Of a stretch of 60,825 nt of DNA, positions 18,077 to 52,173 are shown piece by piece (the first letter of the stretch is position 1; every line of letters starts with the position of its first letter). The stretch comes from a virus (taxonomy: Duplodnaviria > Caudoviricetes), in IMG/VR virus record IMGVR_UViG_3300033142_000461, positions 1-60,825 of that record; one strand, given 5' to 3'. The notes under the pieces are model-generated. The model made no database searches and was not told the origin of the DNA. It was given only the letters and a program-made list of their open reading frames with translations. A program made the translations under genes and the position numbers.

Positions 18077-18721
18077 CTATCGTTTTATATATTCTCTATG
18101 AGACTTGATAATATTTTTTATTCCAAATTTCTCAAATCTGTTTATACCATTTTTAAGTTCTGACATATAGCACATTATAGTTGTATCTTTTCTTCCGACA
18201 ATATCAACTATATAATCAAAACTAACAATCTCCTTATTTCCATTATTCCATTCTACTTCATAGAAGTTAACCTGATTGTTTTCTTTATTAAATTTCTTTT
18301 TAGATGAAGATATTTTCTTTTTATTATCGGCCGAACGTTTCTTTCCTTTCCAAGATTCTCCTAGTTTCGATGCCTGTTGTTTCAACTCTATAGTTCTTTC
18401 TCTACCCCAAATATCCTCAGCAAGCTTGCCCTTCTTTGATATAGACATCTTCTCTTTTGTTACTTCGGAGTGTTTACGTCCCAATATTCCCATATATCCG
18501 ACACACACACCGTCACCACGACAGCGGTGTATAGATTGGTGGTCGTCAGGATGCAAAGCGATAAGATTGGAAGGATGGTGAGAACCACCACAAGATATTG
18601 GTTTAATATGATGAACGTGATAACCTTCAGGAATAGACCATTCTGGATAGAATTGTCTCCAATAAATCTCAAGATTTTTACGATAGTTTGTTTTGGTATA
18701 AATAGATGTAAGCATTGTCAT
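18077..18721 (-). CDS. Free-standing HNH homing endonuclease with NUMOD3-like repeats
   Basis: HVHHIKP..CGG.H.PSNL..L...DH..IH and GRKHSEVTKEKMS; the second ATG (18715) fits the GGAG RBS better. Confidence 0.88.
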   Translation of the reverse strand: MTMLTSIYTKTNYRKNLEIYWRQFYPEWSIPEGYHVHHIKPISCGGSHHPSNLIALHPDDHQSIHRCRGDGVCVGYMGILGRKHSEVTKEKMSISKKGKLAEDIWGRERTIELKQQASKLGESWKGKKRSADNKKKISSSKKKFNKENNQVNFYEVEWNNGNKEIVSFDYIVDIVGRKDTTIMCYMSELKNGINRFEKFGIKNIIKSHREYIKR

Positions 18722-48098: not shown

Positions 48099-48159
48099 TT
48101 GACATTCCAGGCCATTTAGTCTAAGATCTATAAATAGAGTTAGGAAAGATAGACTTTCC
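48099..48159 (+). promoter_or_regulatory. Tandem sigma70 and late promoters plus G-ATAGA-C hairpin upstream of nadM
   Basis: TTGACA-N17-TAAGAT; TATAAATA at 48129; GGAAAG-ATAGA-CTTTCC at 48143-48159. Confidence 0.7.
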
Positions 48160-48190: not shown

Positions 48191-49189
48191 ATGAACAAAA
48201 AATTTAACACCGCTGTGGTGATCGGTAGATTTCAGATACCGCACAAAGCACACGCCGAACTAATCAAATACGCAAGTGAAGTTGCTGATGAGGTTTTAGT
48301 CCTTATTGGTTCAACAAACCAACCGCGTACATTCAAAAATCCTTTCACATACGCCGAACGAGTTATGATGCTCGATGGGTCTGTTCAACGTCCAAGTATC
48401 ACCTATCGTGGTATCGAAGACCGTTCATACAACATTCAACAATGGCTGACGGCCGTTCGTAAAGTTATCGATACGAATACTACCGGTAAAGTTGTTCTTG
48501 TTGGACACCACAAAGATGAAAGTTCATTCTACCTTGATATGTTTCCAGAAATGGCAACAGATGAGTTTCCAAATGTAGATGACCTGAATTCCACCTCTAT
48601 TCGTACCGAGTATTTTGAATTCGGTACAATCTCTGTCGTACTGCCAAGTGCTGTTCGTTCTTTCCTAAAGAAATTCAAAGATACAGACGACTACAAAAAT
48701 CTGTGCGAAGAACAACAATTCATACAGTCTTACAAGTCAGCTTGGTCTAAAGCACCATACGCACCTACATTCGTTACTACCGATGCTGTTGTCATTCAAT
48801 CGGGTCACATTCTACTTGTTAAACGCAAGGCGAATCCCGGCAAAGGCCTATGGGCACTTCCTGGCGGATTCGTTAATCAGGATGAGACACTACAAGATTC
48901 TATGATTCGTGAACTTAGAGAAGAAACAAAGATCAAGGTACCTGTACCTGTTCTTGAGGGACACATTAGGTTTTCTCAAGTGTTTGATTCTCCTGAACGT
49001 TCACTTAGAGGTCGTACAATTACAACTGCTTATCTCATTGAACTGCCGCCGGGAAAACTTCCAAAGGTTGTTGGTTCTGATGATGCAGAAAAGGCAAAGT
49101 GGACTCCATTGAACGATGTATTCAATATGCGTAATCGTCTATACGAAGACCATGCTGATATTATTATTAAAATGACTGGAGGTATCTGA
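48191..49189 (+). CDS. nadM: Bifunctional NMN adenylyltransferase / Nudix ADP-ribose hydrolase (NadM-Nudix, KVP40 NatV-like)
   Basis: GRFQ.PH.AH, KNPFT..ER, S(T)SIR, Nudix box LPGGFV...ET......RELREET. Confidence 0.95.
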   Translation: MNKKFNTAVVIGRFQIPHKAHAELIKYASEVADEVLVLIGSTNQPRTFKNPFTYAERVMMLDGSVQRPSITYRGIEDRSYNIQQWLTAVRKVIDTNTTGKVVLVGHHKDESSFYLDMFPEMATDEFPNVDDLNSTSIRTEYFEFGTISVVLPSAVRSFLKKFKDTDDYKNLCEEQQFIQSYKSAWSKAPYAPTFVTTDAVVIQSGHILLVKRKANPGKGLWALPGGFVNQDETLQDSMIRELREETKIKVPVPVLEGHIRFSQVFDSPERSLRGRTITTAYLIELPPGKLPKVVGSDDAEKAKWTPLNDVFNMRNRLYEDHADIIIKMTGGI

Positions 49190-49190
49190 T

Positions 49191-49433
49191 ATGATTAACA
49201 ATATGAATACCGATTCTCTAATTCGACAAACTGTTAAACGTTTACAATCTCTTGAAAGACAGATGCTGAGCGAACAACAGTTTATTAAAAATGAAGTATG
49301 TGAATTTGATGCTGTAGGTATGTCCTTTGCTATTCAACAAATTCACGACATAACAACCAAGTATGAACGGAGACTTGTTGACTCCGATGGTGTTAATATC
49401 ACCATGAACTATGGCAACAACCAAAAAGACTGA
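49191..49433 (+). CDS. Hypothetical protein
   Basis: GGAGG RBS; between nadM and nadV. Confidence 0.55.
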   Translation: MINNMNTDSLIRQTVKRLQSLERQMLSEQQFIKNEVCEFDAVGMSFAIQQIHDITTKYERRLVDSDGVNITMNYGNNQKD

Positions 49434-49476: not shown

Positions 49477-50862
49477 ATGAATACACAAAATTACAACCCA
49501 ATAGCGGATACCGATTCTTACAAGCCATCACAATGGCTTCAATATCCTCCAGGAACAGAATACATCTACTCATACGTTGAGAGTCGTGGTGGAGAATACG
49601 ATAAAACTGTATTCTTTGGACTACAGATGTTCATCAAGCAATATCTGTCTGTTCAGATTAAACCATGGATGATTGAAGAGGCCGCTGAGATGTTCAAAGC
49701 ACACGGCATTCCATTCAACAGAGAAGGCTGGGAATATATCGTCAATGAACTTGATGGTAAGATTCCTCTTGAAATCAAAGCAGTACCGGAAGGAACTGTT
49801 GTTGACACCAAGAATGTACTTGCGACCGTTGTGAATACAGACCCAAAATGTTTCTGGGTGACCTCATACTTTGAGACTGCTATTCTACGTGCGATTTGGT
49901 ATCCAACAACTGTAGCAACACAGTCAAAGATTGTGAAGAACAAAATCTCTATCGCAATGGACATCTCTTCTGATGACATCGAGAAAGCAGGTCTTGCCTT
50001 CAAACTGCACGACTTTGGTGCTCGCGGTGTTAGTTCAATGGAGAGCGCCGCTATCGGTGGTCTTGCTCACCTTGTGAACTTCATGGGCACTGATACTATC
50101 TCCGCTCTGATTGCAGGACGTAGATTCTACAATGCACCTATGGCTGGATTCTCTATCCCTGCGACTGAACACAGTACCATTACCTCATGGGGTAAGGATG
50201 GCGAAGAGAAAGCATACAGAAACTTTGTAGAACAATATGGTGGAACATACCCTATCATTGCTTGTGTTATTGATTCATACAATGACCGAAACGCTGTTGA
50301 TAATATCATCGGAAACAGAATGAAGGAAATGATTCTGCAATCTGGTTCTATGTTCGTTGCTCGACCTGATAGTGGTGACCCTGTTGAGGTTGTTATCGAC
50401 ATTCTCAAATCGCTGTGGAAATCATACGGCGGAGAAATCAACAACAAAGGATACAAGGTGCTTGATAATGTTCGCGTTATTCAAGGCGATGGTATCAACC
50501 CTACCTCTCTTGGTCAGATTGTTGATGCAGTTATCGAGAATGGTTTCTCTATCGACAACGTTGCTTTTGGTATGGGTGGCGGTCTTCTGCAACAAGTAGA
50601 CCGTGATACTCAACAGTTTGCTATGAAGTGTTCCGCTATCAAGGTTGGTGATGAATGGAGAGATGTATTCAAGACACCTGTTGGTGACCAGAGTAAGGCA
50701 TCTAAGAAAGGTATTCTTTCTCTGAACCTCAACGATGGCAAGTATCAAACACTTCCATACTCCGTTGGTGCCGAAGGCGACCAGCTGAAAACAGTATTCC
50801 GTAATGGTGAACTGATTCGTGAATATGACTTTGACGAAGTTCGCGCAAATTCAAACAAATAG
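49477..50862 (+). CDS. nadV: Nicotinamide phosphoribosyltransferase
   Basis: TDSYK, LHDFGARG, PATEHS, RPDSGDP, QGDGI, FGMGGGLLQ. Confidence 0.97.
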   Translation: MNTQNYNPIADTDSYKPSQWLQYPPGTEYIYSYVESRGGEYDKTVFFGLQMFIKQYLSVQIKPWMIEEAAEMFKAHGIPFNREGWEYIVNELDGKIPLEIKAVPEGTVVDTKNVLATVVNTDPKCFWVTSYFETAILRAIWYPTTVATQSKIVKNKISIAMDISSDDIEKAGLAFKLHDFGARGVSSMESAAIGGLAHLVNFMGTDTISALIAGRRFYNAPMAGFSIPATEHSTITSWGKDGEEKAYRNFVEQYGGTYPIIACVIDSYNDRNAVDNIIGNRMKEMILQSGSMFVARPDSGDPVEVVIDILKSLWKSYGGEINNKGYKVLDNVRVIQGDGINPTSLGQIVDAVIENGFSIDNVAFGMGGGLLQQVDRDTQQFAMKCSAIKVGDEWRDVFKTPVGDQSKASKKGILSLNLNDGKYQTLPYSVGAEGDQLKTVFRNGELIREYDFDEVRANSNK

Positions 50863-50873
50863 GAGAGAATAGT

Positions 50874-51074
50874 ATGACTGTTGTAATTGTGGACGAAAAA
50901 CCTGACTATAGTGTTATCAAGAGAGTCATTTGTAATAACTGTGGTATCAAATTGGAGTATACTCCAGATGATGTTACAAAGGAATCAAGAATGGATTACA
51001 CCGGTTCTAGTGATACATATAGTTTCATTAACTGTCCGAAGTGCAAGAAAGACATTACTGTATCTGTTCGATAG
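50874..51074 (+). CDS. Zinc-ribbon protein
   Basis: CNNC...CPKC. Confidence 0.75.
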   Translation: MTVVIVDEKPDYSVIKRVICNNCGIKLEYTPDDVTKESRMDYTGSSDTYSFINCPKCKKDITVSVR

Positions 51075-51083
51075 GAGATTATT

Positions 51084-51878
51084 ATGTTTGAAGAATGTAC
51101 AAGTAAGTCATTCGCTAACGGTAAAGTATACCTGCTTAAGGATGAGCAGGGTTACCCTATCGAAGTTACCGATACGTTTCTACCTTTCTACACAAAGGAT
51201 GCTGTAGGAAAGAATCAGAACGCCTTGGAAGATTATGACCTTGGTTCAAGAGATGAACGATGGATGGTAGGTGTTTCTACTATGAGCGGTTGTCCTGTAC
51301 GATGCAAGTTCTGTGCCACAGGCAAACTCAGAAAATCGAGAATGTTGACCGCTGGTGAGATTGTCAGACAAGTCGAGTTCGTTTTGGATAAGAATTTCTG
51401 TAAGATTCCTTCTGATGCTAAAGAGTTCAAGATTAACTATACCCGCATGGGAGAACCTTTCTTGAATATCGAGGCAGTTAAACAAGCAATCGATATCATC
51501 GATGAACGATATGGTGCTGAGAATGTTCATCACTATGTCAGCACTATTGGTATCGAAGGTGCCGACTTTAGTTGGATTAAAGAGAATGTAACCCTTCAAT
51601 TCAGTGTACACTCCTTTGATGAAGAGTATCGTGATTGGTTAATTCCTTATCGTAAAAAGATGAAAGTTTCTGAAATGGGTGATGTCAGAACTGATAGTAA
51701 ACTAAAGACCACCTTGAATATGACTATGCTTAGAGAAGAGGACTTTGATATTGTCAAGATGAAGCAATACTTTGACCCCAAAGAGTTCTTTATTAAGATT
51801 AGTCCTGTGAACCCAAACGATGTTGCTGAAGAGAATGGCATCTCGGATGGAATTATAACTCAACAAAACCTTGTATAG
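51084..51878 (+). CDS. RlmN/Cfr-like radical SAM enzyme, lacking the C-terminal segment
   Basis: GCPVRCKFCATG (CxxxCxxC), EIVRQV, MGEP, VST.G, SVH. Confidence 0.88.
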   Translation: MFEECTSKSFANGKVYLLKDEQGYPIEVTDTFLPFYTKDAVGKNQNALEDYDLGSRDERWMVGVSTMSGCPVRCKFCATGKLRKSRMLTAGEIVRQVEFVLDKNFCKIPSDAKEFKINYTRMGEPFLNIEAVKQAIDIIDERYGAENVHHYVSTIGIEGADFSWIKENVTLQFSVHSFDEEYRDWLIPYRKKMKVSEMGDVRTDSKLKTTLNMTMLREEDFDIVKMKQYFDPKEFFIKISPVNPNDVAEENGISDGIITQQNLV

Positions 51879-51888
51879 GAGAACAACT

Positions 51889-52029
51889 ATGGAAAATTCT
51901 GTAGAACAACACATCAAGAATCAACTTGATGGAGAAGGATATGACTACGCTGTGGCGATTGCCACCCAAGCAGAGATTGATGCTGGTGCTGCCTGTGGCC
52001 AATTGTCTATTATCGAAGAAAACTTGTAG
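51889..52029 (+). CDS. 46-aa peptide carrying the RlmN C-terminal catalytic motif AACGQL (not in the ORF track)
   Basis: Own AGGAG RBS; MENSVEQHIKNQLDGEGYDYAVAIATQAEIDAGAACGQLSIIEENL. Confidence 0.85.
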   Translation: MENSVEQHIKNQLDGEGYDYAVAIATQAEIDAGAACGQLSIIEENL

Positions 52030-52031
52030 TT

Positions 52032-52060
52032 AAAATGCTCCCTTTATTGGGGGCATTTTT
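52032..52060 (+). terminator. Rho-independent terminator
   Basis: AAAATGCTCCC-TTTATTG-GGGGCATTTTT hairpin with T tract. Confidence 0.75.
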
Positions 52061-52071
52061 GTTTGTACTGT

Positions 52072-52173
52072 ATAAATATAACTTATACCCATATAGAAAA
52101 CTTATGTGCTTAAGTGGTTGACTCCATTGGTCATACCTGTATAATTGGTACTTAACTGTGAGAACAAGAACAA
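52072..52173 (+). promoter_or_regulatory. Early promoter cassette copy 6 (shortened)
   Basis: ATAA-N7-TTAT-N6-ATAG; TTGACT-N16-TATAAT; no GAGAGAG leader. Confidence 0.7.

Follow-up and report, generated by a model that had tools for sequence, protein, structure and literature searches.

An RlmN-like radical SAM enzyme divided between two genes at a phage NAD-salvage locus

A core protein and a short peptide tile the RlmN profile

The viral contig IMGVR_UViG_3300033142_000461, a stretch of 60,825 nucleotides (nt) that was analysed whole and is referred to here as the window, carries at positions 51084–52029 two consecutive genes whose products resemble complementary parts of RlmN, a radical S-adenosylmethionine (SAM) enzyme. 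The larger gene, ORF1 (51084..51878, plus strand), specifies an RlmN/Cfr-like core of 264 amino acids (aa), an assignment drawn from the list of open reading frames (ORFs), profile searches, a structure model and alignments. The core has the cluster motif C70-x3-C74-x2-C77 (SGCPVRCKFCATG) and MGEP at residues 122–125, and its reading frame ends at a TAG stop codon (51876–51878). An AGGAG ribosome-binding site (RBS), read from the sequence at 51877..51881 (plus strand), overlaps this stop and lies 7 nt before the ATG at 51889 of the second gene (51889..52029, plus strand), which encodes in the +1 frame relative to ORF1 a 46-aa peptide, MENSVEQH...AIATQAEIDAGAACGQLSIIEENL. An intrinsic-terminator-like hairpin of 11 pairs with a T-tail (52032..52059, plus strand) closes the block after the peptide gene. 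A preliminary description of this DNA had reported a 264-aa frame with CxxxCxxC and MGEP that stops before the RlmN/Cfr C-terminus, and a separate 46-aa frame with its own AGGAG, followed by a terminator; the ORF list and the sequence agree with it on these points.

The closest families of the core are those of RlmN and Cfr. Its Pfam matches are Radical_SAM (E 2.7e-11) and a weak Fer4_12, with no other. In NCBIfam the best model is RlmN TIGR00048 (E 8.6e-21, confined to residues 56–198), followed by the Cfr models, with scores below the curated cutoffs (74.3 bits versus 290 for TIGR00048 and 47.7 bits versus 550 for TIGR04432). A profile of 24 core sequences, A1, matches the RlmN structures 6fz6, 4pl1, 5hr6 and 3rf9 (E 1.8e-31 to 1.1e-25) and Cfr 9p0p (E 3.9e-22). 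The AlphaFold2 model of the core has a pLDDT of 91.3 and a pTM of 0.90, the last 15 residues being floppy, and a Foldseek search with this model returns RlmN at ranks 1–10 (TMq 0.63–0.68), Cfr at rank 11, and then TYW1 and the pyruvate formate-lyase (PFL) activase. Against a 371-column profile of 15 fused RlmN-like proteins, A5, the core profile aligns over columns 69–329 (profile–profile comparison, E 6.3e-52). The first ~68 columns of the RlmN-like profile, which hold the RlmN_N domain, are without a counterpart in the phage pair; Pfam gives no match to RlmN_N (PF21016) in the core, and the same search detects the domain in a control protein, P0386. The CxxxCxxC motif and the RlmN-type barrel that mark RlmN and Cfr are thus both present (C70/C74/C77; profile and fold matches), but the methyl-accepting Cys (Cys355 in RlmN, Cys338 in Cfr) is not found within the same polypeptide, the core stopping before the Cys loop. 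One close homologue of the core, P0256 (601 aa, 61% identity), has an apparent intein at the cluster motif, as judged from intein-type NCBIfam matches.

The missing segment lies in the peptide. Cys36, within AACGQL, is the sole Cys of its 46 residues, and its tail is acidic. A profile of 36 such peptides, A2, covers columns 312–350 of the 371-column RlmN-like profile (hhalign probability 92.4%, E 5.2e-7); compared with PDB sequences, the A2 profile gives nothing meaningful (best E 0.7), and the homology to RlmN is visible only by profile–profile comparison. These comparisons show, at the level of sequence profiles, that the peptide is homologous to the last helix, the last strand and the Cys loop of the RlmN fold and that core and peptide tile the RlmN profile between them. 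A single Cys is present in 103 of 120 peptides, and conservation in the alignment of 36 peptides is confined to the docking segment, the tails being acidic and variable. Over the 25 codons of the peptide core, compared among 33 lineage representatives, the median proportion of synonymous differences (pS) is 0.785 and that of non-synonymous differences (pN) 0.195; the median pN/pS is 0.25, and pN is lower than pS in 528/528 pairs. Judged by these substitution patterns, the peptide core is under purifying selection.

The peptide ORF of Vibrio phage D479 (locus L005, 2303–2584) overlaps the core gene at the latter's end, and its 93 aa contain the docking segment and Cys loop twice, in tandem. Nine longer peptide-bearing proteins were found elsewhere, and the five that were inspected contain one unit each behind an upstream extension.

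Conservation of the split architecture

The two-gene arrangement extends well beyond the window. One search returned 1957 relatives of the core at E<=1e-3 among 2141 candidates, and the best 120 of these are all 248–288 aa long. Stand-alone relatives of the peptide number 299; the 120 among the matches listed have lengths of 37–57 aa. Named phages with the core–peptide pair include Kehishuvirus 'tikkala', Moorella phage MTATph1, Vibrio phage D479, Yersinia phage P778 and Pectobacterium phage Arno162, the peptide gene in P778 and Arno162 lying 0.3–0.5 kb downstream of the core. Among 80 viral-contig loci found with A1, a separate plus-strand peptide ORF is present in 79 and a fused gene in none (0/80), and all 80 have Gly at position −7, that is, seven residues before the first cluster Cys. 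In a second set of loci, which comprises more divergent members and was searched with a hidden Markov model of the peptide, the peptide is present everywhere but in L108 and L120. The former shares its contig with L086, the sole miss of the first 80, and the contig of the latter stops ~0.9 kb after the core.

Clustering of the cores at 75% identity defines 33 split-type phage lineages. In 19 of these the peptide gene is adjacent to the core, in 13 it lies 0.2–2.6 kb downstream with genes between, and in one (L129) it is upstream. The preliminary description had named close homologues with a single fused ORF among the findings that would refute its proposal. No C-terminal core–peptide fusion occurs among 168 proteins with Gly(−7), consisting of 120 close homologues and 48 representatives, which together with the separate peptide in 79 of 80 loci answers that point in favour of the split. 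Nor is there a true fusion among 216 Gly(−7) loci, where the single flagged row, L178, proved to be a chance internal CGQ. In one database protein, P0259, the only such case, the peptide appears to be fused to the core N-terminus.

Since the two frames in the window are only 10 nt apart, in frames 0 and +1, one might suspect a single gene that was interrupted by a sequencing error or a recent frameshift, or that is read by programmed frameshifting. Against this stand the 299 stand-alone peptides, the variable distance and frame of the peptide gene, which can have other genes intervening or even lie 5' of the core, the RBS and start codon of its own, and the purifying selection on its product. 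Such an artefact is left with a negligible probability. We conclude that frameshift, sequencing error or pseudogene formation is excluded as the origin of the split, which is a conserved architecture far beyond chance.

The resolving-cysteine position

RlmN and Cfr are textbook class A radical SAM methylases, the latter being a major antibiotic-resistance enzyme, and their mechanism needs two cysteines in one chain. The natural family described here (1957 proteins in the one search; at least 33 phage lineages, with hosts from Bacteroidota to Proteobacteria) departs from both rules, in that one Cys is on a separate peptide and the other is absent. In RlmN, a first SAM methylates Cys355, the 5'-deoxyadenosyl (5'-dA) radical generates a thiomethylene radical, and the covalent RNA–protein adduct to which this leads is resolved by a second conserved Cys (PMC5130265). 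The variants RlmN C118A and Cfr C105A remain cross-linked (PMC5130265; bioRxiv 10.64898/2026.02.27.707579). The mechanism given in the preliminary description, with a methylated Cys355, a covalent adduct and a second, resolving Cys, matches the accessible text of these two publications.

In the profile-to-PDB alignments, Gly63 of the core sits over the resolving Cys, 'kwkigvS' being aligned with 'RTTVCVS' of 6fz6, and the E. coli C118A entry 4pl1 has Ala there. The earlier proposal of a Gly at the position of E. coli RlmN Cys118 is borne out by this alignment and by the family as a whole: in an alignment of 77 sequences every split representative (34/34) has Gly in the resolving-Cys column, and Cys fills it in the fused phage proteins (33/33) and the RlmN-like proteins (10/10). 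Gly(−7) is likewise found in 120/120 close homologues and in the 48 representatives, and none of these 168 proteins has a CGQ loop in the same chain. Cys(−7) occurs in 30 representatives, 20 of them with the CGQ loop and most of the other 10 being fragments, and a third set of proteins has I, V, N, T, M or L at −7 together with a fused SNCGQ-type loop. There is no other conserved Cys in the core that could be seen in A1, where the three cluster ligands are the only invariant cysteines.

The order of events was addressed with a quick tree of 76 core regions, rooted at the midpoint. It divides into a clade of 24 rows (support 99), made up of 23 Cys(−7) proteins and one with Ser (P0353) and holding all but one of the Cys(−7) proteins, and a clade of 52 rows (support 99), none with Cys(−7). 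The latter splits into a Gly(−7) group (support 95) and a fused I/V/N(−7) SNCGQ family (support 100). The Gly(−7) group consists of the phage split enzymes, a branch from Candidate Phyla Radiation (CPR) and DPANN genomes, and two fused Thr(−7) AACGQ proteins. For the SNCGQ family, the best matches in viral contigs are 27–36% identical, none of them a close relative. On this topology, loss of Cys(−7) is probably older than the split and took place at the base of the larger clade, which includes fused enzymes. A joint origin of the split and the Cys loss was considered and is ruled out by this tree, the support for which is SH-aLRT support only.

The preliminary description had expected the split and the Cys loss to co-occur, as a single design in which the resolving Cys is given up and the catalytic Cys is moved to a disposable peptide. 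The expectation holds in one direction, since every split member lacks the resolving Cys, but not in the other, since many Cys-less enzymes are fused; and the coupled design does not fit a tree that puts the loss of Cys(−7) in a clade with fused enzymes. Because the Cys-less fused enzymes need some other means of release, unless all of them are single-turnover, the likelihood that a persistent adduct is the end product of the split family is lowered.

The CPR/DPANN branch comprises 13 loci (L171–L183) in metagenome-assembled genomes (MAGs) of Parcubacteria, Saccharibacteria, Woesearchaeota and others. Its members have Gly(−7) and end just past the last barrel strand. Searches within 4 kb of the gene in the 13 loci, and of five whole genomes, turned up no Cys-loop peptide, these being incomplete MAGs. 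As far as these searches go, the branch presents an RlmN-like enzyme with neither catalytic Cys.

Genomic setting and candidate function of the pair

By Pfam annotation, the window is a contig of a distant T4-like myovirus, encoding a gp20 portal, gp23 capsid protein, gp15, gp19, UvsY/UvsW, gp44/45 and RegA; the capsid protein shares no more than 42% identity with those of known phages. A crAss-like phage had first been assumed, the closest core homologue being that of Kehishuvirus, and was ruled out by this annotation.

Predicted genes of nicotinamide adenine dinucleotide (NAD) salvage lie 5' of the core. A 332-aa NadM-like bifunctional NMN adenylyltransferase/Nudix protein (48191..49189, plus strand; CTP_transf_like E 1.8e-11, NUDIX E 2.1e-20) is followed by an 80-aa ORF without a family match (49191..49433, plus strand) and by a 461-aa nicotinamide phosphoribosyltransferase, NAMPT (49477..50862, plus strand; NAPRTase E 4.4e-55, NAMPT_N E 6.6e-29). 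Directly 5' of the core is the gene for a 66-aa four-Cys zinc-ribbon/rubredoxin-like protein (50874..51074, plus strand), which matches DUF7479 (E 1e-4) and zinc ribbons, all below cutoff, and phrog_2834 (E 2e-14). This protein has two CxxC pairs and a weak similarity to the DVU_1557 redox protein family (E 0.0016), and it could be a rubredoxin-like electron donor to the radical SAM cluster; a search of the other loci returned no homologue of its gene next to the module. Directly 5' of the NadM-like gene, a promoter-like site, TTGACA-17-TAAGAT (10/12; 48099..48127, plus strand), marks a possible start of a transcription unit on the strength of its consensus match only. There are 17 such sites, against 14.3 expected in shuffles, and the best in the region (48099–48127 and 52118–52145, again consensus matches only) bracket the block from NadM to the peptide. 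The NMNAT/Nudix gene, the 80-aa ORF, NAMPT, the zinc ribbon, the core and the peptide lie on one strand with short gaps, between a promoter-like site and a terminator. NAMPT and an NMN adenylyltransferase are encoded together on the same strand, the arrangement by which NARP2 loci are recognised, and NARP2 is reported in ~1.1% of phage genomes (bioRxiv 10.1101/2024.02.11.579819, as far as its accessible text goes). From this layout we infer that core and peptide are the last two genes of a predicted NMNAT/Nudix–NAMPT (NARP2-type) operon and have a part in that pathway.

The association recurs. A gene for NAD salvage (NAMPT, NadM-like, isochorismatase, NAPRTase, phosphoribosyl pyrophosphate (PRPP) synthetase or NAD kinase) lies within 3–4 kb of the module in 12 of the 33 split-type lineages; the fused phage family with two Cys has such a neighbour in 9 of its 33 lineages, and the Thr(−7) fused group in 1 of 18. 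Neighbour domains read by Pfam across 32 lineage representatives place NadM-like and NAMPT genes directly upstream of the module in L133 and L169 and on either side of it in L092 and L094, with a NadM-like gene upstream in L062. Near the module there are Nudix and NAMPT in L013, NAMPT in L095 and L153, isochorismatase and NAPRTase in L129, PRPP synthetase in L165, and NAD kinase and Macro in L012. RlmN-like proteins are also naturally fused to isochorismatase (P0348, P0379, P0391), Nudix (P0333) and thioredoxin-reductase-like (P0354, P0357, P0389) domains; P0371 too is among the natural RlmN-like fusions with isochorismatase, Nudix, thioredoxin-reductase-like or beta-lactamase-family domains.

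The proteins themselves offer further hints as to substrate. The window core has a net charge of −8 and an isoelectric point (pI) of 5.1, and the peptides have a median charge of −6, against a median of +10 for RlmN-like proteins (n=7). The 77-sequence alignment reveals invariants specific to the split family, namely Val15 (Lys in all relatives), an insert at 33–46, T120-R121 just before MGEP, and K238, and shows that the substrate-side beta extension has been rebuilt; in Cfr this extension is said to hold A2503 (bioRxiv 10.64898/2026.02.27.707579, accessible text). The RNA target named in the preliminary description, A2503 or A37, gains no positive support from an enzyme without RlmN_N, with a rebuilt beta extension, acidic in the window and placed in an NAD-salvage context. 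Gene context and fusions suggest instead that a nucleotide is a likelier target than rRNA or tRNA.

The explanation that we put forward, tentatively and with somewhat less than even confidence, is that the pair forms a two-chain RlmN/Cfr-type (class A-like) radical SAM enzyme in which a trans-acting, exchangeable peptide carries the Cys, the target is an NAD-linked nucleotide and the product is methylated. Both pieces are demonstrably homologous to RlmN in profile comparisons, from which the chemistry of a two-chain RlmN-type enzyme would be extrapolated. The 264-aa core would hold the [4Fe-4S]/SAM site, and the peptide would dock by strand complementation, completing the barrel. As in RlmN, the peptide Cys would take a methyl group from SAM and then become a thiomethylene radical, 5'-dA radical chemistry putting a CH2 group on an electron-poor ring carbon of the substrate. 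An adenine or pyridine nucleotide from NAD metabolism may be what the pair acts on or works beside, the purpose being probably counter-defence; such a nucleotide is suggested by the distal place of the module in the NadM–NAMPT operon and by the same association in many unrelated phages. In the least certain step, the adduct would be released by another base to give a methylated product, the free peptide being an exchangeable Cys carrier. Release by another base seems to us the most likely course because fused relatives also lack the resolving Cys.

Several observations weigh against this explanation. No NAD gene is found in the flanks of 21 of the 33 split lineages, and phage accessory regions can cluster genes without a common pathway. 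With a median pI of 8.2, the 120 close homologues of the core are on average mildly basic, so that the argument from charge is strong for the window only. No C-terminal re-fusion of peptide to core was seen in the 168 proteins or the 216 loci; this absence suggests that it is important for the peptide to be free, whether it is then consumed or exchanged. There are tRNA genes in the flanks of 7 of the 32 representative loci, and RNA ligase, RtcB or PNKP genes near the module in four representatives (L012, L133, L093 and L018). These last two points, together with a tRNA-Thr gene 4.3 kb upstream in the window, would suit an ordinary two-piece RNA methyltransferase, in which another base replaces the Cys and m2A or m8A is formed on tRNA A37 or 23S rRNA, for example for protection from anticodon nucleases or for translation tuning. 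The closest characterised relatives all methylate RNA, and a fused relative in Stenotrophomonas phages is placed among tRNA genes. We nevertheless regard this alternative as unlikely: RlmN_N was not found in the core, the beta extension that holds A2503 is rebuilt and an invariant Lys lost, core and peptide are acidic in the window, NAD-salvage genes lie closer to the module, and more often, than tRNA genes, and relatives are fused to isochorismatase or Nudix domains.

A peptide that is consumed would make the module a system in which the thiomethylene adduct persists, as a stable conjugate, peptide-S-CH2-adenine or peptide-S-CH2-pyridine, formed with a nucleotide or with RNA, and the core reloads with fresh peptide. 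The absence of Cys(−7) and of any other conserved Cys from all split members is what such a system calls for, as is the persistent cross-linking of RlmN C118A and Cfr C105A in the publications cited above. It also offers the best explanation of why the peptide gene, adjacent in most lineages, is never re-fused to the core C-terminus, and the tandem copies in phage D479 would be expected of a stoichiometric reagent. These copies are confined to one lineage, however, the inspected longer proteins being single-unit, and P0259 apparently tethers the peptide to the core N-terminus. The variable acidic tails have no conserved feature past the docking segment. On the quick tree, Cys(−7) was lost before the split arose, and fused enzymes with the same loss would then be suicidal. 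The fused phage enzymes that keep both Cys have their NAD context in common with the split family, which suggests a similar product. Such a consumable peptide is on balance improbable, though far from negligible; its more specific form, a single-use peptide welded by an S-CH2 bridge to RNA or to the adenine or pyridine ring of a nucleotide such as NAD, ADP-ribose (ADPR) or an ADPR-derived immune signal, is doubtful. A still less probable alternative, which we rate very low, casts the peptide as substrate and final product, S-methylated or cross-linked at Cys36 for instance, of a system like those making ribosomally synthesised and post-translationally modified peptides (RiPPs), with the core as maturase. 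The proximity of a radical SAM gene to a short, conserved gene for a peptide is suggestive of this, and 9 of the 33 lineages have a second radical SAM gene, paired in the loci read with a small protein with a Cys-rich tail. But the peptide is homologous to the C-terminal segment of the enzyme family itself, including the barrel-completing strand; it has no leader/core organisation, its variable ends being short; and no SPASM, twitch or RRE domain was found by Pfam, which gives Radical_SAM and a weak Fer4_12.

Comparison with known systems places the two-chain enzyme that we favour apart from each of them. RlmN (TIGR00048; PDB 3RF9/3RFA, 4PL1, 5HR6/5HR7, 6FZ6), the synthase of the C2-methyl of 23S rRNA A2503 and tRNA A37, shares with the phage pair the barrel, CxxxCxxC, MGEP, S-x-H...R and the C-terminal helix, strand and xACGQL Cys loop. 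The pair differs in having this loop on a separate 46-aa product, Gly at the Cys118 position, no RlmN_N, a rebuilt beta extension with an insert, and an NAD-salvage context. Cfr (TIGR04432; PDB 9P0P), the 23S A2503 C8-methyltransferase, has the mechanism family (class A) and the fold in common with the core; it carries Cys105 and Cys338 in one chain, with an N-terminal RNA-binding domain (bioRxiv 10.64898/2026.02.27.707579, accessible text), whereas the core has neither Cys. The fused phage 'mini-RlmN' family (~310 aa; for example in Stenotrophomonas phages BUCTxx99 and ANB28, Vibrio phage PS17B-2, Salmonella phage Arash) resembles the split family in being phage-borne, in lacking RlmN_N and in having NAD-salvage genes nearby in 9 of 33 lineages, but its members are single chains that have both Cys(−7) and a GGCGQLW loop, and they form a separate clade. 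As in NARP2, the NAD+ reconstitution by NAMPT and NMNAT, the window has NAMPT and an NMNAT–Nudix gene upstream of the pair in the same predicted unit; unlike NARP2 as described, with its two enzymes, this unit adds the radical SAM pair. The words 'radical' and 'RlmN' are absent from the NARP2 and NAD-phage texts bioRxiv 10.1101/2024.02.11.579819, PMC13464706 and PMC11662467, and we found no description of the split family in the literature outside subscription-only papers and supplements.

The phage pair, small at 264 + 46 aa, probably carries out an undescribed reaction. It would be new either way, with a covalent intermediate that is resolved without a second Cys or one that is kept as product. 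If the peptide were single-use, it would represent a natural peptide–nucleotide conjugation chemistry employed by phages beside the genes with which they rebuild NAD, in which the trapped intermediate of RlmN C118A becomes a biological end product. The recurrent place of the module in NAMPT/NMNAT loci suggests that NAD+ reconstitution by phages, a topic of current interest in counter-defence, is associated with a third activity that has gone unrecognised.

Some features of the surrounding loci may be recorded. The second radical SAM gene, unrelated to the core and encoding ~295 aa with weak MoaA/viperin/HxsC-like matches, lies beside the module in 9 of the 33 split lineages, and its partner in the loci read is a 100–150 aa protein with a Cys-rich tail (...DPCGRGG....C). 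The pair occupies 4779–5977 in L147, 4793–5995 in L165, 4683–5881 in L164, 2742–3985 in L153 and 3817–5162 in L016; it falls between core and peptide in four of these five loci and 5' of the core in L153, and it is absent from the window. A tmRNA gene is called at 602–976 in L169, near the NadM–NAMPT–core block of a 245-kb viral contig, and ARAGORN finds a tRNA with a four-base anticodon (catc) directly 3' of the peptide gene in one viral contig (L019, 3914–3994). In the window, an HNH/NUMOD3 homing-endonuclease-like gene (18080–18721, minus strand) lies between the major capsid gene and the gp19-like tail tube gene; of the 83 ORFs of 70 aa or more, it and four others are the only ones on the minus strand.

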